Origin: Dehalococcoidia bacterium
GTDB lineage: Bacteria; Chloroflexota; Dehalococcoidia; Lucifugimonadales; Australimonadaceae
Reading direction: 5' to 3'
DNA: 64,000 bases
Assembly (NCBI GenBank): GCA_965220225.1
Contig: OZ244813.1
Location: 2,826,570-2,890,569, forward strand
This document shows, piece by piece, positions 2,862 to 49,949 of this stretch. The translations under genes and the position numbers were made by a program. How positions within the stretch are numbered: the first letter of the stretch is position 1; every line of letters starts with the position of its first letter. The notes below the pieces were generated by a model. It was not told where the DNA came from and did not search any database. It saw only the letters and a list, made by a program, of their open reading frames with translations.

Positions 2862-3710
2862 ATGGGTAACTCGGATACGTATTTCGTCCACCTGAGCGAT
2901 ACGCACATCCTGGCCCACGAAGACGAACGACTCTACGGAAACGACACCACCGCGAATTTCAGGGCGGTCATAGATCACTTGGAGACTGAGCAGATAGAAC
3001 CTTCTTTCGTCCTCATCACCGGAGACCTCACCGACCACGGCGAATGGCCCAGCTACCGCAGGCTTCGCGGCCTCGTCCGGGAAACCGAACTGCGGCTCGG
3101 CGTTCCGGTGCTTCTCGTGCTCGGCAACCACGACCGCCGCTCGGCATTCCGCCAGGCGATACTCGGCGACGCCGAGGCTACCGACGCGGACGAGTACTAC
3201 TACGCCACGACGATCAACGGCCTCCGCATCATCGTCCTCGATTCAACCATCTCAGGACGGGACGACGGCGAGATCGGGCCGCGCCAGCTCGAATGGCTGG
3301 AGGATCAGTTCGCCTTCGGCCCGGTAGGGCAGCCGACAGTGATCGCCCTGCACCATCCCCCTCACCTTGCCGCCAACACCCATCTCGATGGCTTCGCCCT
3401 GGAGGACCGCGAACGTCTGGAACGCGTGATCGCCCGCCACAACGTGCTGGCGGTCCTGAGCGGGCACACGCATCTCTCCTCGCACGCCCGCTTGGGGAAC
3501 GCGGCGTCGCTCTCGGCGCCGTCCACCGCGTATCTGGCGAACCCCGCTCCGGGCCGCGATTTCTGCAGGACATCGGGCATCGGTTTCAACATCGTGAGCC
3601 TGAGATCAGGGAAGATCACCTCGCACCCGGTCATACTGCCGGCCCCGTCAGCATTGTTGCAGTACGTCCCACCGTCCATCGATTCCGAGCTTCTGGCGGC
3701 GATCGCCTAG
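2862..3710 (+). CDS. Metallophosphoesterase (CpdA/Icc-like)
   Basis: DTH, GDLTD, GNHD, HHPP and GHTH calcineurin-like motifs. Confidence 0.88.
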   Translation: MGNSDTYFVHLSDTHILAHEDERLYGNDTTANFRAVIDHLETEQIEPSFVLITGDLTDHGEWPSYRRLRGLVRETELRLGVPVLLVLGNHDRRSAFRQAILGDAEATDADEYYYATTINGLRIIVLDSTISGRDDGEIGPRQLEWLEDQFAFGPVGQPTVIALHHPPHLAANTHLDGFALEDRERLERVIARHNVLAVLSGHTHLSSHARLGNAASLSAPSTAYLANPAPGRDFCRTSGIGFNIVSLRSGKITSHPVILPAPSALLQYVPPSIDSELLAAIA

Positions 3711-3716
3711 TACCAT

Positions 3717-4463
3717 ATGGAAACCCTGACGCAGACGAGACAGATCGACATCCCCGGCGTGCACAACATGCGCGACACCGGCGGCTACCCCGCAGCCGGC
3801 GGCTGTACGACGCGCTGGGGCACACTCTTCCGCTCCGCACGCCTGCACGCGTTGGGTCCGTCGAGCATGCAGATGCTGGTCGACATGGGCATCCGCACGG
3901 TCGTGGACCTTCGCGGCGAGGGCGAGATCGCCAGAGCGCCCGACACCTGCGCCGATTGGCCGGGCATCGCCTACAAGCACATCCCGCTCACTCCTGCCCA
4001 CATCAGGACGAACGGCGACCGCCCTGCCAACCTCGAAGCGCAGAACGAACGCTACCTTGAGGACTCGTCAGAGCAGATAGCGATGGTGCTGCGGGTGCTG
4101 GCCCGGTCCAACGCGTTTCCGGCGATCGTCCACTGCACCGCGGGCAAGGACCGTACCGGGATCATCACCGCCCTCCTGCTGGCGCTCGTTGGAGTCCCCG
4201 ACAACGTCATCGCTGACGACTATCTCCTCAGCCTGCACGGCGCTGCTCCTGTCCTGGAGGCGCTGCGGGTGGAGGGCGCCGCGAGCGGCTGGGACCTCGA
4301 CCACCTCGAGCGGATGCTCGAATGCCGCCCGGAGGTGATAACGCACACGCTGGACGTGCTGCGGCGGCGCCACGGAGGCGTGGAGCGCTACCTCTCGCAG
4401 GCGGGAGTATGGCTCGCTGACCTGCAGACCCTGCGCGCCGCGCTCCTCGAGCCTGCCCGGTAG
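3717..4463 (+). CDS. Tyrosine-protein phosphatase (Y_phosphatase3/PtpB-like)
   Basis: NMRDTGG, VVDLR, HCTAGKDRTG P-loop and DYLLS. Confidence 0.9.
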   Translation: METLTQTRQIDIPGVHNMRDTGGYPAAGGCTTRWGTLFRSARLHALGPSSMQMLVDMGIRTVVDLRGEGEIARAPDTCADWPGIAYKHIPLTPAHIRTNGDRPANLEAQNERYLEDSSEQIAMVLRVLARSNAFPAIVHCTAGKDRTGIITALLLALVGVPDNVIADDYLLSLHGAAPVLEALRVEGAASGWDLDHLERMLECRPEVITHTLDVLRRRHGGVERYLSQAGVWLADLQTLRAALLEPAR

Positions 4464-4916: not shown

Positions 4917-6020
4917 ATGGCAAGCAAGTTGCAGGTCGTTGACGGGGACGGACACCTGGTGACGGACATCGCGGCGGTGGCAAGCCGCATGCCGCAGGAG
5001 TTTCTGAACCGCGCGGGAGGCAGCAGCCTCGGCAACATCTTCCCGCCGATAGACCACCTCCACGCCGCTCAGCCCGTCGCGACGCCGCCGGGGTCGTTCC
5101 CCAAGATCGGCGTCGAGGAGTGGCTCATGTTCATGGACGAGGTCGGCATCGACTGCGCCGCGCTCTTCCCGACAGGCGGCCTGTCCTACGGACGCATCGT
5201 CAACAGGGACTGGGCCATCGCCGTGTGCCGGGCCTACAACGACTGGCTCTACGACACCTACGTGAAGAGCAGTCCGCGGTTCGTTGGCCTCGCCCTCATC
5301 CCCATGCAGGAGCCGGAGGAGGCCGCCTTGGAGCTGCGCCGTGCCGTCAACGACCTTGGGATGGCGGGCGCGATGCTCCCGACGCGCGGACTCCCGAACC
5401 ACCTCGGCGCGAAGGAGTACTGGCCCGTGTACGAGGAGGCCGACCGCCTCGGCTGCTGCCTCGCCGTCCACGGCGGCTCGCACAGCGGCATGGGGTTCGA
5501 CCACCTGAACGTCTACGCGCCCGTCCATGCGATGGGCCACCCGGTGGGGCTGATGACCGCCTTCGCCGGCGTCGTCTTCAACGGCGTCCTCGACCGCTAC
5601 CCGAACGCGCGCTGGGGCTTCCTCGAGGGCGGCGTCGCCTGGTTCATGCTCTGCATGGAACGGTTCGACCGCTCCTATGAAACGCACATCGACCTCGACC
5701 CGCGCGGAGAGCTGCTGCAGTTGCGCGACGGCGAACGCGTGAGCGACTACATCCTGCGCCATATCCACGACGGACGCCTGTTCGTCGGGTGCGAAGGCAC
5801 CGAGCCGCTCATCTCGGAGGCGCTGCGCCTGACGAGCGGAAAGTGCTTCGTCTTCTCGTCCGACTTCCCGCACGAGGTCAACGCGGAGATCTGCAAGCAC
5901 GAGCTCAGCGAGATCTTCGAGAACACGAAGATCACCGGCGAGGAGCGGACGGGCGTGCTGTCTGAGAACGCCCGCGCGCTCTACGGGCGGCCCGTTGCCG
6001 CAGGTCTCGAAGCCCACTAG
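4917..6020 (+). CDS. Amidohydrolase_2 family protein
   Basis: DGDGH, RAYNDW, AVHG, FLEGG and SSDFPH motifs; GGAGG RBS. Confidence 0.88.
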   Translation: MASKLQVVDGDGHLVTDIAAVASRMPQEFLNRAGGSSLGNIFPPIDHLHAAQPVATPPGSFPKIGVEEWLMFMDEVGIDCAALFPTGGLSYGRIVNRDWAIAVCRAYNDWLYDTYVKSSPRFVGLALIPMQEPEEAALELRRAVNDLGMAGAMLPTRGLPNHLGAKEYWPVYEEADRLGCCLAVHGGSHSGMGFDHLNVYAPVHAMGHPVGLMTAFAGVVFNGVLDRYPNARWGFLEGGVAWFMLCMERFDRSYETHIDLDPRGELLQLRDGERVSDYILRHIHDGRLFVGCEGTEPLISEALRLTSGKCFVFSSDFPHEVNAEICKHELSEIFENTKITGEERTGVLSENARALYGRPVAAGLEAH

Positions 6021-40948: not shown

Positions 40949-41244
40949 GTCATTTCGAGCGAAGCCGAGAAATCTCTCGGGGCACCCCGCTCGTGGTGAG
41001 CCTGTCGAACCATCCTGCGCAGGCAGGGACCTCGCATCTCACCTCTCCTGAGGGAGGGTTAGGGTGAGGGCCCTCCGGGGTGGTGTGGTGAAGGGCTTGT
41101 CATTTCGAGCGAAGCCGAGAAATCTCTCGGGGCTCTGCCCGCTCATGGTGAGCCTGTCGAACCACCGTCATTCCCGCACCGGCGGGAATCCAGAGTGACC
41201 GGGCAGGTCACGCGGTGGGGTGGTGCCTGGTCCCCTCTCCCTTG
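40949..41244. repeat. Mosaic cluster of REP-like palindromes (families A, B, C, D)
   Basis: GTCATTTCGAGCGAAGCCGAGAAATCT x2, CGCTC(A/G)TGGTGAGCCTGTCGAACCA x2, one dRS3-like copy and family A. Confidence 0.8.
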
Positions 41245-41261
41245 GGGAATTACTAACAATG

Positions 41262-41438
41262 CTAGCCAACCTCTGCTTCCCGCGCTATCAGCATTGCATC
41301 GGCCATCATGTACGCTACCGCAGCATAGCCTACGCGAGTCGCCTCTTCTGTCACAACCTTAGTGTGCGGGTTACTTGCCATCAATCCCGCTAACGCTTGT
41401 CCCGCGAACCAGTCCCGTAGGCTTATGTTGTCCGGCAT
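41262..41438 (-). CDS. Small phage-type hypothetical protein (58 aa, MPDNISLRDWFAGQALAGL...AYMMADAMLIARE)
   Basis: Translated by hand; GGAG RBS; TAATG coupling; resembles the phage 'LRDYFAA..AM..AY..ADAML.AR' family; stop codon lies inside the left TIR. Confidence 0.7.
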   Translation of the reverse strand: MPDNISLRDWFAGQALAGLMASNPHTKVVTEEATRVGYAAVAYMMADAMLIAREAEVG

Positions 41439-41581
41439 TAGTTGCTCCCTTTGTCTTTCTTTTCCTTCTTCTGATACTTGTATCCGCCAGGAGGTGGTGC
41501 GCGGAACTGCATCACGACTTCCGCGATTTCTTCCGCTGTGTAGCCCTTCATATCCTTTGATGGCTTATTGTCCTTCGCCAC
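41438..41581 (-). CDS. Small basic hypothetical protein (47 aa, MAKDNKPSKDMKGYTAEEIAEVVMQF...)
   Basis: GGAGG RBS and GTG start just downstream of the transposase. Confidence 0.55.
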   Translation of the reverse strand: MAKDNKPSKDMKGYTAEEIAEVVMQFRAPPPGGYKYQKKEKKDKGSN

Positions 41582-41604
41582 TGTCCACCTCCCGCTTATC
41601 GAGT

Positions 41605-42558
41605 CTATTCTACTACATTTTGACTTACCAAGTCTTGCCAGCGCAGACGCTTCCCGACAATACCATCGGCCATAACGTCCAACTGTTGAGCCGTGTCCAA
41701 CGGGCGTTGATTGTGACGCCCTGCGAACTCGTTCACATATCTTTGCAAGTGCTTACCGCTCATCTGGTGGTAGGTTCCGTGATACCCACGCTTCAGCATC
41801 GCCCAATGGCTTTCAATGCCGTTGGTGTGCGCCGCTTCATTCACGAACTGCGAAACACCATGCTTCACAATCTTGTGCTCTTGTGGAATGTTCCGGTAGC
41901 CGGAATGTTCATCCGTGTAGACGATTGCATTGTCCGCTACCTGCTCCTCCACAAAGCCTTGCAAGGTTTCCGTCTTGGTGTCAGGTACGACGCGCAAGAC
42001 AACTTTGTTCATTTCACGCCCTTTCGCGCCCATAACCACAACCTTGCCGACTATGCCCGTACCCTTTCGGAGTTTCTTGTTAGCATGCTTGTTCCTTTCC
42101 AAGCCACCGATAAAGGTTTCGTCTACCTCGACCTCACCAGAGAGCTTGTCCATCCCCGCGTTCCACGCTTCCCTGATGCGGTGAGCCATGTGCCAAGCCG
42201 CCTTTTGGGATATCCCCAAGTCACGGTGCAACTTCATGCTGGACACACCCTTAAGGTTCGTAGCGTACAGGTAGAACGCCACCGCCCACTTACTAAGCGG
42301 GATGTTGGAATCGGCAAGAACCGAACCAGTCCGCACAGAGAAATGCTTGCGGCAGTCCCTGCACCTAAATGGCATAGGCTTGCGATTCGCAACCTCACGA
42401 GCATTACCAACCACGCCACAATGCGGGCAAGCAATCCCGTTAGGCCAACGACGCGCAATGAACCACTCTTCCGCTTTGCGCTCGTCAGCAAAGTAGGCAA
42501 TCGCTTCGGTAAGCGAGATACCCTTCCGTTCAGACCTGCCTGGTGCCTTCTTAGTCAT
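41605..42558 (-). CDS. IS1595-family DDE transposase
   Basis: Zn ribbon CPHCG...CRDC, HTH, VEVDETFIGG, YTDEHSGY and HTNGIESHWAMLKR...KHLQRYVNEF..RHN. Confidence 0.95.
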   Translation of the reverse strand: MTKKAPGRSERKGISLTEAIAYFADERKAEEWFIARRWPNGIACPHCGVVGNAREVANRKPMPFRCRDCRKHFSVRTGSVLADSNIPLSKWAVAFYLYATNLKGVSSMKLHRDLGISQKAAWHMAHRIREAWNAGMDKLSGEVEVDETFIGGLERNKHANKKLRKGTGIVGKVVVMGAKGREMNKVVLRVVPDTKTETLQGFVEEQVADNAIVYTDEHSGYRNIPQEHKIVKHGVSQFVNEAAHTNGIESHWAMLKRGYHGTYHQMSGKHLQRYVNEFAGRHNQRPLDTAQQLDVMADGIVGKRLRWQDLVSQNVVE

Positions 42559-42598
42559 ACTTCACATCCTCTTCAAACTAGAATATTGAACTGTGCGA

Positions 42599-42627
42599 AT
42601 CATAACATAAACACTTCCATTTGTCAA
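42599..42627 (-). promoter_or_regulatory. Near-consensus sigma70 promoter for the transposase
   Basis: Minus strand TTGACA-N17-TATGAT with TG extension. Confidence 0.7.
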
Positions 42628-42726
42628 GCGACAACGCGCTCGGATTTACGCCAATTACGTGCATTGCTGGAGGCGGGATTAGTTCAATATCCCTTGTTGA
42701 AAGGCGTGTTCCCGCCTCCAGCAAAC

Positions 42727-42755
42727 TTGACTCCGATATTCGATTGTACTACCAT
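42727..42755 (+). promoter_or_regulatory. Promoter of cargo cassette 1
   Basis: TTGACT-N17-TACCAT; spacer contains TATTCGATTGT. Confidence 0.6.
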
Positions 42756-42760
42756 CATTC

Positions 42761-42853
42761 TGCTACAAGTCCGCTTACCCCTGTGAGTCACCAGGCGGGA
42801 GCGTTGGGCTACCCATGCCCTCCTTGTCAGGCTCGCAGTGCGGACTTGTAGCA
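42761..42853 (+). ncRNA. Structured leader RNA (putative)
   Basis: Perfect 14-bp stem TGCTACAAGTCCGC/GCGGACTTGTAGCA with inner CTGTGAGTC/GGCTCGCAG. Confidence 0.5.
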
Positions 42854-42887
42854 AAGCACCAAGCTCTTGCCGCAAGGAGGGTTCCAC

Positions 42888-43499
42888 ATGCGTTATCTGT
42901 TACTGGTCGTCGTTGTTGCGGGCCTAGTAGCGTGCGCTTCACCGACGCCTACCCCTACGCCAACGGCAACTCCTAGACCTACACCTACTCCAACACCTAC
43001 TGCGACGCCTATTCCAACCGCAACACCTACGCCTACCCCTGAACCAACACCCACACCAACGGCGACGCCTACACCTACCCTGATTCCGACACCTACGTCC
43101 ACTCCATTACCTACGGCAACACCTACACCTATCCACTGGTACAGTCCGCAAGAAATCACGGAGGTCTACCAGACTAATCGTGCTCGTGCTCATATCCTGT
43201 TTGAAACCGGAACCGTCCATATTCAAGGCGAAGTATCCGAATTCCACACAAATCAACTTGGCCTAATCTACCTCGTCAAGCGGCGTGCGCCAGCAAGTGA
43301 TTTCTCATTCCTTACCGAAACAGACGCACAACGCGCCGCTAAGGATTGGAAGGTCATTAGAGCGAAGTTGTCCATCGAACAAGTAGCCGCAATGAACATT
43401 GGCGACCCTATCCGCTTGCGCTGTGATAGGCTTGAGCCTGATGAATACGTAGGGACAGGTGCGGAACTGATTTGCGCTAACCCTGTCCTGACACCATGA
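42888..43499 (+). CDS. Lipoprotein with PT-repeat linker and probable OB-fold (tRNA_anti-like) domain
   Basis: AAGGAGG RBS, lipobox LVAC, (PT)n linker, 'EITEVYQTN...VHIQGEV' and 'IGDPIRLRC' pattern. Confidence 0.7.
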
Positions 43500-43510
43500 G
43501 GCTTGCGCGT

Positions 43511-43633
43511 GGAGAGGTGCCGGAGTGGTTGAACGGGGCCGACTCCAAATCGGTTAGGGGCTTGGAAGTCTGACATTCTGTGTTTGTATTTCCTTTCAGT
43601 CCCTCGCGGGTTCGAATCCCGTCCTCTCCTCCA
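43511..43633 (+). tRNA. Atypical tRNA: anticodon CCA (Trp) on a Ser-like class II body, 51-nt variable arm, encoded CCA end
   Basis: Acceptor GGAGAGG/CCTCTCC; D arm CCGGAGTGGTTGAACGG; anticodon stem GCCGA/TCGGT with loop CTCCAAA; T arm GCGGG-TTCGAAT-CCCGT; U73-CCA. Confidence 0.8.
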
Positions 43634-43665
43634 GCCCCTCCTCACGCGAGCGCGTAGTCTTTGAT

Positions 43666-43695
43666 TTGACTCTATTCGATTGTTAATGCTAACGT
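43666..43695 (+). promoter_or_regulatory. Promoter of cargo cassette 2
   Basis: TTGACT-N18-TAACGT with TG extension; spacer again contains TATTCGATTGT. Confidence 0.5.
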
Positions 43696-43755
43696 CCTTA
43701 GTGACAAGTCCGAACCGTGTTGCGGGGCGGGCTTGTACTCATTTAAGGAGGTTCT

Positions 43756-43881
43756 ATGTTCGTAATGTTCTTTCGGTTCCCTGTGCCCGTTGTCCGTCGA
43801 TTCCGCGTACCGGAACCACCTCGCTCATTGGGGCTAGTTGCCGCCTACGAACGAGCAGGGTATGATTCGGACGCGGGCTAG
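43756..43881 (+). CDS. Putative 41-aa peptide (MFVMFFRFPVPVVRRFRVPEPPRSLGLVAAYERAGYDSDAG)
   Basis: Strong AAGGAGG RBS, partly paired within the upstream hairpin. Confidence 0.5.
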   Translation: MFVMFFRFPVPVVRRFRVPEPPRSLGLVAAYERAGYDSDAG

Positions 43882-43916
43882 TCATGGCTAGCCCGTAGAC
43901 GGCGGGGTAGTTCTCC

Positions 43917-44008
43917 GTGGCAGTGTTGCCAGTGTGGTTAACTGGACGAGGATTCAAACCCTTTGAACGACTCAGTGCGTGGCGGTTCGATTCCGCCTCT
44001 GCCCGCCA
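43917..44008 (+). tRNA. Degenerate tRNA-Sec-like RNA, anticodon UCA
   Basis: Long D stem CCAGT/ACTGG; TTCAAA loop; T arm GGCGG-TTCGATT-CCGCC; G73-CCA; acceptor and anticodon stems imperfect. Confidence 0.55.
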
Positions 44009-44057
44009 GCGTGGACTACCCCGCCGTCACCTTTGGCTAGCATTGTTAGTAATCCCC

Positions 44058-44170
44058 CTCCCTTGAGGGGAGAGGGCTAGGGAGAGGGTGAACCGGCGGT
44101 GTAGGGTGCCTGGTCTAGGGGCATCCCTCGTGGGTGCCCTTGCCCCGCTCATGGTGAGCCTGTCGAACCA
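44058..44170. repeat. REP-like cluster, right part (families A, E, C)
   Basis: CTCCCTTGAGGGGAGAGGGCTAGGGAGAGGG, TAGGGGCATCCCTCGTGGGTGCCCT and CGCTCATGGTGAGCCTGTCGAACCA. Confidence 0.75.
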
Positions 44171-45129: not shown

Positions 45130-46887
<1,758 letters not shown>

Positions 46888-47962: not shown

Positions 47963-48245
47963 GGTGTTCAGAGGGTTCCAAGTACCAAAAAGAGATTGGA
48001 CATGTCACTGAACAAGGAAGACGTATGGCGAATCTACGATATGCCCCTCGACGAGCTAGATAGACCGCCACGCGGTATACACAGCCGCTTGATTGATGCG
48101 CGGACTAGTACCCCACTCCCCTAGAACTCCCGCCTCTGACGAAATGACGACCCCCTCTCCCTCTGGGAGAGGGGCTGGGGGTGAAGGTTGTTTTCATGAC
48201 ACGCGCTCGTTGCGCAGACGCCACACCCCTCCCTACCCTGTCTGC

Positions 48246-49949
48246 ATGACTACCCAACCCGTCCCCGCGCCTGAACAATCCCATATCCCGGACACCCTCC
48301 CGCCGCAGGACAGGGCATACGCCGACCGCCTCACCCGCGCCCTCCGCTGCGGCGTACCCGGCTGCGAGTGCGCCGACGGCCCTATGGTCCACTGTCCCTC
48401 CCACAGCCACGCCGAGGTCCCGACCCTCACCGTCTCCTACGACCCGAAACGCGGCTTCGACTTCCAATGCCTCGTCTGTCCCCCGTTCCGAATCCGGGAC
48501 GCCCTTGTGAAGCGCGGACTCGCGCCGGAAGGGGAGTTCTACACCGCCTTCGGCGCGCAGGAAGCCGGACTCCAACCCTTCTACTTCTTCATTCAGCAGC
48601 CCCAGGACTGGCTCTGGCCCAACCGCATACCGCTCGGCAAGCTCACCCTCATCGCCGGATACCCCTCATCCGGCAAGACCGCCATCGCACTCGACATCGC
48701 CGCCCGCGTCTCCCGTGGCGCAGCCGCCCCCGATCAGCCGGACTCCCTCTTTCCCTCCGCGCCCGTCGTCCTTGCACTGCTCGACGGCAACCCCAAGGCC
48801 GACGTCCTCCCAATCCTCCGCCTGTTCGGCGCCGACTTGGAACGCATCTACCTCGCCGACCTCCTCTCGCCCACGCACCCCGTCGACTACTACCCCGACG
48901 ACCCGCCTGAGGACGATGACGGCCCGTACTCCTTCGAGGACGACGACGGTCTCGATGATGAGGACGACGATGACGTCGAGTACCTGTTTGACAACGACGG
49001 CAACGAGACACGCGTTCCCCGACGCAAGCCGGTCGGCTTGAAAGCCCCCGTTCGCGACCCGTTCTGGACGCCCGCCACTTCCGGCTCGAAACTCACCGCC
49101 CCCTGGCCGCGCCTCGACAAGGTCATGGGACGGCTCGCCAACTACCTTGCCGAGGGGAAGGCCGCCCTCCTCGTCGTCGACCAGGTCGAAGACCTCGCCG
49201 CCATGCACCGCACTCACGTCGCCACCGTCCTGGGCATGCTCAAGGCGCTCGCCGCGCGCTCGGGCGCTGCCGTCGTCGCCCTCGCCCACAACCCCGCGCA
49301 GAACTACCCCCGCGCCGTCACCGCCATACAGAACCGCCTGCCCCTCGCCTCCGTCGTATTCACCACCGCCGTCGTCGAACCGGGCGGACGCCGCTTCCTC
49401 GTCCCCCTCCGCCCCGCCATGAGCGACGATACCCCCGCCATACCCTTCGTCCTTCCCCGTTCTCCGTCGCTCCCGCGGAAGCAGGAGCCTCGCACCCCAC
49501 CTCTCCCTCGGGGAGAGGTCGTCGCGCACAGTGCGGCGGGTGAGCCTCGCATCCCACCTCTCCCTCGGGGAGAGGTCGCCGCGCCCAGCGCGGCGGGTGA
49601 GGGTTTCACCGTCGCCTGGCGCAAGCCCGTCTTCCCCGCCCACATGAAAGCCCTCACCGAGCCCCGCCCCAACGACGGCGCGAAGACCCGCGCCGCGCAA
49701 ACCTTCCTCATGCGCGCCCTCAGCGATGGTCCTCGTCCCGCCGCCGATGTCGAGCGCGAGGCCGCTCTGATCGGCGTCTCGAAGTCCACGCTCGTCCGGG
49801 CCCGCGCGCTCTGCAACGTCAAAGCCTTTCGCGTCGGTACGCCCGGTACCCACACCGGTGCCGGCGCGTGGTACTGGTCCCTTCCGTCAGGAGACACTTT
49901 GCAACAGGATGAGACACCCGCCGCCCCAGCCGAAGTTGTAAACGGATGA
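48246..49949 (+). CDS. AAA_25/RepA-like ATPase with primase-type Zn-binding N-terminus
   Basis: CPSH..PTLTVS..FQC, WLWPNRIPLGKLTLIAGYPSSGKT (Walker A), LLVVD (Walker B), C-terminal wHTH-like segment ending WYWSLP. Confidence 0.8.
   Translation: MTTQPVPAPEQSHIPDTLPPQDRAYADRLTRALRCGVPGCECADGPMVHCPSHSHAEVPTLTVSYDPKRGFDFQCLVCPPFRIRDALVKRGLAPEGEFYTAFGAQEAGLQPFYFFIQQPQDWLWPNRIPLGKLTLIAGYPSSGKTAIALDIAARVSRGAAAPDQPDSLFPSAPVVLALLDGNPKADVLPILRLFGADLERIYLADLLSPTHPVDYYPDDPPEDDDGPYSFEDDDGLDDEDDDDVEYLFDNDGNETRVPRRKPVGLKAPVRDPFWTPATSGSKLTAPWPRLDKVMGRLANYLAEGKAALLVVDQVEDLAAMHRTHVATVLGMLKALAARSGAAVVALAHNPAQNYPRAVTAIQNRLPLASVVFTTAVVEPGGRRFLVPLRPAMSDDTPAIPFVLPRSPSLPRKQEPRTPPLPRGEVVAHSAAGEPRIPPLPRGEVAAPSAAGEGFTVAWRKPVFPAHMKALTEPRPNDGAKTRAAQTFLMRALSDGPRPAADVEREAALIGVSKSTLVRARALCNVKAFRVGTPGTHTGAGAWYWSLPSGDTLQQDETPAAPAEVVNG

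Follow-up and report, generated by a model that had tools for sequence, protein, structure and literature searches.

Introduction

In the description that ISfinder gives, insertion sequences of the IS1595 family combine a DDE transposase that bears an N-terminal zinc ribbon with terminal inverted repeats, an 8-bp target duplication and passenger genes, and the family is said to have been described by Siguier and colleagues in 2009. Helices that close around an RNA are known from elsewhere: the RNase III stalks of rRNA precursors and of some tRNA precursors are formed by a leader and a trailer that pair over about 20 bp or more and enclose the mature RNA, and the Y RNA called YrlA, reportedly described by Chen and colleagues in 2014, is said to join a stem made from both of its ends to a module that resembles a tRNA, its D and T arms being genuine and its anticodon arm altered. 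Here I describe an IS1595-family transposon in which a tRNA-like core is enclosed by such a helix, found in a 64,000-nt stretch of DNA from a Dehalococcoidia bacterium (hereafter the window, positions 2826570-2890569 of a genome assembled as a 2.94-Mb single contig, G000:C1, that is 94.8% complete). I consider it somewhat better than an even bet, at a rough probability of 0.55, that the core and its surroundings are a transposon-borne, tRNA-Cys-derived cassette, tRNA-like and either non-decoding or decaying, which sits in a conserved leader/trailer helix (the cage) beside the right end of the element; this estimate covers identity and context, and the role of the helix as a processing or stability stalk is inferred.

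Irregular tRNAs on mobile elements have been known before, and the caged, exchangeable tRNA slot is the new part. In the sections of Mukai et al. [quoted passage not shown] The same sections give tRNA-Sec, the tRNA for selenocysteine, a 13-bp acceptor branch (8/5 in bacteria), a 6-bp D stem and a long variable arm, and name U73 and GCA as the main identity elements for CysRS (PMC5389517). SerRS and LeuRS ignore the anticodon, as the abstract of PMC11028032 also has it. A literature search of limited scope turned up no publication that describes tRNAs as cargo of IS1595 elements.

How, then, does this locus compare? Like the allo-tRNAs and other irregular tRNAs, the core surfaced as a tRNA-Sec false positive, with an odd acceptor/T geometry, stem mismatches, a misfit anticodon and irregular tRNAs as neighbours. 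Unlike an allo-tRNA, however, it has no clean 8/4 or 9/3 branch, its variable region is short and its D loop is 7 nt long where an allo-tRNA has a long variable arm and a Sec-like D stem with a tetraloop, it is Cys-like and not Ser-like, it lies in a leader/trailer helix on an IS1595 element whose inverted repeats and target duplication are defined, and its host is a Dehalococcoidia bacterium and not one of the Acidobacteria, Clostridia or Proteobacteria of Mukai et al. With selC* tRNA-Cys it shares the Cys relationship, the Sec-like look and a possible UCA triplet, and it differs in the absence of U73 and of adjacent selB*/cysS* genes, in an anticodon stem that is weak in the UCA register and in the transposon context. 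The long helix of 5' and 3' ends, the intact D and T arms and the non-standard anticodon arm recall YrlA, whereas the location on a mobile element does not, nor do the host genome, in which TROVE/Rsr gave 0 matches, and the Rfam YrlA model, which had no match at E up to 10. As in the RNase III stalks, a leader/trailer helix encloses an RNA, except that the enclosed RNA is here a sub-threshold tRNA-like gene on a transposon and its cleavage is hypothetical. Finally, unlike the passengers described for IS1595 elements, the cargo consists of tRNA and tRNA-like genes together with a lipoprotein gene and tiny ORFs.

A tRNA-like core in a cage

An earlier note on the window, made from its sequence alone, had proposed that a selenocysteine-like RNA with a UCA anticodon is enclosed by a 16-bp outer stem, and a script check bears out the stem: GACGGCGGGGTAGTTC pairs with GGACTACCCCGCCGTC through 15 Watson-Crick pairs and one wobble pair (T43912.G44014), and by a repeat search the arms can be extended to 24 nt at 83% complementarity (43898-43921 / 44005-44028). 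The 3' strand ends 4 nt to the inside of the right inverted repeat. Inside the cage, every feature that the note listed is present, namely a perfect T arm (GGCGG / TTCGATT / CCGCC, 43981-43997), a long D stem (5 bp, 43929-43933 / 43941-43945, with a 7-nt D loop), TTCAAA with TCA at 43954-43956, and G44005 followed by CCA at 44006-44008. In the acceptor and anticodon stems, where it saw irregularities, the alignment to the tRNA-Sec model marks non-pairs. The acceptor has a U43924.U43998 mismatch and a 3' strand that is one base short, which is why ARAGORN draws the core as 7/4, and the variable region of 15 nt contains at most three pairs.

Folding prediction gives the 131 nt of cage and core a minimum free energy (MFE) of -63.9 kcal/mol, far more stable than shuffled sequences (-45.85 +/- 3.2; z -5.64; 0 of 200 shuffles equal), with pair probabilities of 0.92-1.0 for the cage and for the D and T arms. 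The alternative pairing of TGGC with GCCA, which hides the CCA and which the note had offered as a second possible fold, is in fact the predicted dominant pairing, its probabilities being 0.79-0.95 vs 0.04 for the acceptor stem in the same 131-nt context. As a control, the leaders and trailers of the 56 tRNAs that ARAGORN calls in the host genome reach a longest ungapped run of 12 bp and a best duplex of -33.4 kcal/mol, against 16 bp and -53.0 here; the pairing of the cage is unusual among host tRNAs, with 0 of 56 matching it.

Is the core a tRNA, and which one?

By the usual thresholds the core goes unseen. Default ARAGORN finds 0 tRNA genes in the whole 64-kb window, and at Rfam gathering scores (47 bits for RF01852, tRNA-Sec, and 29 bits for RF00005, tRNA) the sole RNA reported there is a tRNA at 43511-43630 with 50.4 bits. 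Under permissive settings, positions 43919-44003 match the tRNA-Sec model with 34.9 bits (E 6e-5 in 1.1 kb); in the covariance-model check that the note had suggested, the core stays below the tRNA-Sec threshold and is not reported by RF00005 at its gathering score. Once its own threshold is lowered, ARAGORN does recover the core, as a tRNA-Leu(CAA) with a 7/4 cloverleaf.

The nearest relative is a different tRNA altogether. Among 49 host tRNAs (the 56 ARAGORN calls minus seven odd ones, at 2267902, 1725274, 2219661, 619901, 2535683, 2073863 and 1681346), tRNA-Cys(GCA) is closest, with 58 of 70 aligned positions and 17 of 17 in the T arm; relative to it the acceptor 3' strand is one base shorter, the anticodon stem-loop is changed and the variable region is longer by about 10 bases. 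The loop CUGCAAA of tRNA-Cys aligns with AUUCAAA of the core if one stem base is deleted. There is no U73, the discriminator being C44004 in the 7/4 reading or G44005 in the 8/4 reading; an 8/4 branch requires that U43918.C44004 and U43924.U43998 be counted as pairs, and a 9/3 branch has three mismatches. Canonical tRNA geometry has been lost in the short acceptor 3' strand, the non-standard anticodon loop region and the enlarged variable region. When the anticodon region of a 91-nt core is folded in four registers, the most stable by energy is a UUCAAA/UUUGAA hairpin in which the triplet is buried (-27.6 kcal/mol), followed by the 8-nt loop AUUCAAAC on a 4-bp stem (-25.2), a 7-nt loop with CAA (-24.0) and, least stable of the four, a 7-nt loop with UCA (-19.7), the stem of which has two G-C pairs and one G-U.

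A tRNA-Sec identity was considered and rejected: the score stays under the gathering score, the acceptor branch is 7/4 or a mismatched 8/4 and not 8/5, the UCA register is the least stable, and neither the 5-bp D stem with its 7-nt loop nor the 15-nt variable region is that of a tRNA-Sec. The host, moreover, has a selenocysteine system of its own. As the note had stated, no selA, selB or selD lies in the element or the window; the genome check that it called for places all of them elsewhere, with selC at G000 438364-438457 (RF01852, 69.9 bits), selA, one selB (one SelB wing-domain match) and selD, and with this full set a second Sec tRNA is therefore not needed. The selD gene spans the contig ends (G000:C1:2938259-2938702 joined to 1-480) and has one in-frame TGA, for which reason the genome as assembled is probably circular and SelD itself probably a selenoprotein. 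One CysRS lies over the cut-off. Beside the core, neither a second selB nor a cysS without anticodon domain was found, the neighbours being transposon genes, and no gene of the transposon has an in-frame TGA. Taken together, the sub-threshold scores, the register energies, the branch geometry, the complete host Sec set and the absence of in-frame TGA speak against the Sec-like or opal-suppressor part of the earlier proposal; its tRNA-mimic part holds structurally, in that the CCA is paired in the predicted fold and the arrangement recurs in a sister transposon. The core is very unlikely to be a tRNA-Sec and is most probably no suppressor.

The sister element and the search for further copies

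Of 61 related genomes, 22 contain relatives of the transposase (E <= 1e-20); the nearest, 82% identical, is that of genome G018, where it belongs to a sister element of 3,063 bp that shares the ends and has an 8-bp duplication of its own. In a pairwise alignment of the two elements, the transposase and the C-domain of the lipoprotein are 76-93% identical in 100-nt windows. The flanks of the slot are identical, ..CTAGCCCGTAGACGGCGGGG on one side and CCCGCCGTCACC plus the inverted repeat on the other, as are the hairpin stem before the cage, the first 10 and last 9 nt of the cage and the spacer, and the interior of the cage cannot be aligned at all, the T loop excepted. In the sister, the slot is occupied by a tRNA that matches host tRNA-Arg(CCG) at 61 of 73 positions and RF00005 with 48.2 bits; it is without a regular 7-nt anticodon loop, and ARAGORN gives it a two-base 'anticodon'. 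Its MFE fold (-76.4 kcal/mol, z -6.05) is a cloverleaf atop a helix of 13 bp, a 4-nt bulge and 12 bp, with discriminator and CCA paired. Inside the shared outer 9-10 bp, both helices are prolonged by unrelated self-complementary sequence, over 6 bp here and about 15 in the sister. That slot and outer helix are conserved while the occupant has been exchanged is the main argument that the helix matters, an argument from two sequences and not a test. The window's element is without two small membrane ORFs that the sister has.

Wider searches added little to this pair. A 146-nt query against the 61 relatives recovered the window's own copy alone in full, with partial matches of 22-32 nt in three other genomes, and a 422-nt query against 401 class-level genomes gave two 30-nt matches and nothing more. 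A 19-nt word from the inverted repeat was found in the sister contig alone among public genome contigs, and among metagenome contigs in one chance match without a transposon; the transposase search in 401 genomes of the order gave no additional relative above 64% identity.

The transposon and its other cargo

The element is an intact 2,813-bp IS1595-family transposon (41245-44057), present as a single copy in the host genome and lying in a low-GC patch (0.54 vs ~0.66), and it has the DDE transposase with zinc ribbon, the inverted repeats and the 8-bp target duplication of the family. The same termini, GGGAATTA.., are found at 20 of 38 related loci, 13 of those 20 with an exact 8-bp duplication. 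From left to right follow two small ORFs and the transposase, all on the minus strand, then a promoter-like site, a leader, the lipoprotein ORF, the first tRNA, the 41-aa ORF, a hairpin and the caged core (Table 1).

Table 1. Features of the transposon (window coordinates) and tRNA genes at three related loci (coordinates of each locus)
Feature	Position	Strand	Remarks
Target-site duplication, left, CTCCCTTG, 8 bp	41237-41244		Identical to 44058-44065
Left terminal inverted repeat, GGGAATTACTAACAATGCTAGCCAA, 25 bp	41245-41269	+	24/30 end positions match reverse complement of right end
Tiny ORF, 37 aa, MKGYTAEEIAEVV.., directly downstream of transposase	41438-41551	-	Kept in sister (41445-41604 78% identical)
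Transposase, 317 aa	41605-42558	-	Pfam DDE_Tnp_IS1595 2.5e-40, Zn_ribbon_IS1595 9.3e-09
Promoter-like site of transposase, TTGACA-17-TATGAT	42599-42627	-	11/12, consensus match only
Promoter-like site of passenger unit, TTGACT-17-TACCAT	42727-42755	+	Kept in sister element
Structured leader before lipoprotein ORF, 14-bp perfect long-range stem	42761-42853	+	Same stem in sister element
Lipoprotein-like ORF of passenger unit; Cys-containing signal peptide, Pro/Thr linker, C-domain of ~115 aa	42888-43499	+	C-domain 85-90% nucleotide identity to sister
First cargo tRNA, Ser-type class II, CCA anticodon	43511-43633	+	RF00005 50.4 bits; 79/91 to host tRNA-Ser(GGA)
Small ORF, 41 aa, AAGGAGG ribosome-binding site	43756-43881	+	C-terminal part alignable with sister element
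Promoter-like site, TTGCCG-17-TATGAT, just upstream of hairpin and cage	43838-43866	+	9/12, consensus match only
Hairpin GCGGGCTAG..CTAGCCCGT, directly upstream of cage	43873-43896	+	Stem identical in sister element, loop differs
Cage, 5' strand	43898-43913	+	First 10 nt identical in sister element
tRNA-like core	43919-44004	+	RF01852 34.9 bits (below gathering score); closest tRNA-Cys; TTCAAA at 43953-43958
Cage, 3' strand	44013-44028	+	Last 9 nt, spacer and inverted repeat identical in sister element
Right terminal inverted repeat, 25 bp	44033-44057	-	Pairs with left end
Target-site duplication, right, CTCCCTTG	44058-44065		Inside genus-wide palindromic repeat
L091, Ser-type CGC; Leu-type GCC; 68-nt tRNA-like gene	794-884; 947-1045; 2949-3016		68-nt gene 25 nt upstream of transposase
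L094, Ser-type body with UAA	2715-2803	-	
L119, three tRNAs (Ser-type with GAA, two of them, and an Arg-like class I body with GGA)	4099-4186; 5187-5261; 5261-5348		

The first cargo tRNA has the loop CUCCAAA (CCA, the Trp codon), U73, an encoded CCA and a well-paired variable arm of about 50 nt, and its anticodon stem stays paired through a double change at 28-42 (A-U to C-G); if charged, it would be expected from its sequence to put Ser at UGG. The corresponding position in the sister holds a Leu-type body with GUC. Related loci were screened with Rfam in subsets, the remaining ones by T-loop motif and ARAGORN. The motif occurs in 8 of 38 and 3 of 19 fetched IS1595-related loci, several of the matches being ordinary host tRNAs, and most related IS1595 elements are without a tRNA. 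Relaxed ARAGORN made 14 calls in 19 related elements; by eye these are tRNA-like in the window's element, in the sister and in an element labelled IS-B, and the other 9 have poor T arms. A strong hairpin precedes several of the IS1595-linked tRNAs at the three loci of Table 1. In all 8 of the 8 class II cargo tRNAs (cases found, not a random sample), the anticodon is foreign to the best-matching body.

The host has other examples of its own. A second IS1595 element is present in two identical 2,777-bp copies (locus L034; 1725183-1727957 and 2219570-2222344, duplication AAATGCAA), in which an 8/4 Sec-like or allo-like tRNA (RF01852, 42.1 bits) lies behind a strong hairpin and is accompanied by a Pro/Thr-rich lipoprotein ORF, a transposase and a small ORF. 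Another host tRNA enclosed by a helix (2267902-2267996, in locus L128 at 5003-5097) is class II with CAA, a Ser-like body and G73 (RF00005, 46.6 bits); its leader/trailer helix has 11-12 bp, and it sits in a 1-kb low-GC islet with a 132-aa ORF and no recognisable transposon, its sole weak relative being an IS1595-linked tRNA(UAA) in genome G057.

As for the lipoprotein, its C-domain has no Pfam family match; a protein-language-model search placed it nearest to clusters that carry PF12869 'tRNA_anti-like' (OB fold), with a score of 0.91, a placement that hmmscan did not confirm at E up to 10 and that was set aside. The leader of the lipoprotein contains a 15-bp perfect hairpin (42664-42724), and the sister keeps the pairing through changed, still complementary bases. 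The transposon is inserted in one copy of a palindromic repeat of about 46 nt (..CCCCTCCCTTGAGGGGAGAGGGCTAGGGAGAGGGTGAAC..), which lies in the window at 44052-44099 and 40990-41244 and is present in many copies through the genomes of the genus; 36 of 41 genomes gave a match, nearly all of them by way of this repeat. To the right of the transposon, in patchy low-GC DNA, are a fused N6/N4 DNA methylase with an Mrr-like endonuclease domain (45130-46788, minus strand) and an AAA_25/DnaB-like ATPase (48093-49949, plus strand), and both genes look like more of the islet's mobile or defence cargo.

Weighing the readings

If the cassette is what I take it to be, the slot would be transcribed rightward, from the promoter-like site just upstream of it or from farther upstream, and in the resulting RNA a helix of 16-20 bp would form together with a tRNA-like module whose CCA end is paired. 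The helix could then act as a processing or stability stalk, offering a duplex of the RNase III type while RNase P recognises the tRNA-like module, and the outcome would be either a small tRNA mimic that does not decode or simply, for the passenger transcript, a 3' end that is defined and protected, with the window's copy as a degenerate member of the cassette type. Several points weigh against this. Transcription of the slot, formation of the helix and its processing are all inferred steps; the predicted dominant fold of the window's copy omits the acceptor stem, which is as compatible with decay as with a switch; the caged slot is seen in two copies only, in its own genome and in G018, and hence there is no statistical covariation; an origin at the level of DNA, through insertion of tRNA cassettes in a hairpin that was older and lay next to the inverted repeat, is still conceivable; and the neighbours of both the UCA and the CAA register resemble U33 and A37, so that decoding would be compatible with the sequence. 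In a bolder version of the idea, this IS1595 lineage has a slot reserved for tRNAs, in which a conserved helix beside the right inverted repeat hosts different tRNA bodies (Cys-like here, Arg-like in the sister) and yields locked 'pro-tRNAs' whose CCA is freed only by helix cleavage. Together with the neighbouring Ser- and Leu-type tRNAs of foreign anticodons (CCA, GUC, CGC, GCC, GAA, UAA), the transposon would then form a mobile module able to reprogram or perturb host decoding on demand. I think this unlikely.

Plain decay or hitch-hiking, with a dead tRNA pseudogene in a cage that is the relic of an older hairpin beside the inverted repeat and neither of them serving any purpose as RNA today, is rather doubtful, though it deserves a hearing. 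It would explain the sub-threshold model scores, the indels relative to tRNA-Cys and the acceptor that is predicted not to form, and the loss of two small membrane ORFs relative to the sister is in keeping with it; yet two unrelated inserts have both kept self-complementary flanks that prolong the shared helix (6 bp here and ~15 in the sister), each has the shape of a tRNA and its CCA end pulled into the helix, identity is 100% in the flanks as against 76-93% in the coding parts, and the sister's insert is a good tRNA by the model. A working decoding tRNA released from a precursor, reading UUG (CAA) or, by way of the 8-nt loop, a quadruplet or frameshift, its amino acid set by the body and not by the anticodon, seems to me quite improbable. 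Relaxed ARAGORN does draw a cloverleaf with CAA, U33 and A37, the neighbouring class II cargo tRNAs are intact and mismatched in every case, and the same genome has a second caged class II tRNA(CAA) at 2267902-2267996, but the closing pair is an A.C mismatch, 2 of 5 pairs are G-U, the 7/4 geometry includes a U.U mismatch, the cloverleaf lies 2-3.6 kcal/mol above the fold in which the loop is buried, and a Cys-like body that lacks the CysRS identity elements U73 and GCA has at the same time a variable region too short for Ser or Leu identity.

An opal suppressor, that is, a Sec-like UCA tRNA derived from tRNA-Cys and comparable to selC* tRNA-Cys(UCA), is extremely unlikely, even though the alignment of CUGCAAA with AUUCAAA amounts to G34 -> U and the weak tRNA-Sec match, the 4-bp T stem, the long D stem and G44005-CCA after an 8/4 reading all look the part. 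Besides the poor UCA register and the missing U73, there are no selB*/cysS* neighbours and only one CysRS and one SelB in the genome, the host Sec system is complete, with an in-frame TGA in its own selD and none in the transposon genes, and the sister's slot holds a tRNA that is not UCA. A protein-binding tRNA mimic of the YrlA type, or some other regulatory small RNA, has the same architecture of end helix, D and T arms and odd anticodon arm, and is nevertheless very improbable given the genome without TROVE/Rsr and the silent YrlA model. A search within the element for RNA antisense to the anticodon arm found a longest run of 9 with 2-3 G-U pairs, within the range of shuffled sequences (9-17); by eye, UUCAAAC matches the transposase leader over 7 nt, a match that the sister element does not conserve and that was dropped.

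What the finding means

Should the transposon-borne cassette prove to be decay after all, a false selenocysteine or suppressor call would have been removed, and sub-threshold tRNA-Sec matches in the low-GC islets of these genomes would be shown as transposon cargo. Should the slot be functional, it would represent a novel means by which a simple DDE transposon carries tRNA-shaped RNAs and controls them, and would give the irregular tRNAs of Mukai et al., till now only loosely tied to transposable elements, a genomic home. The class II cargo tRNAs with foreign anticodons would be charged regardless of the anticodon, and transposon-borne mistranslation would then become directly testable.

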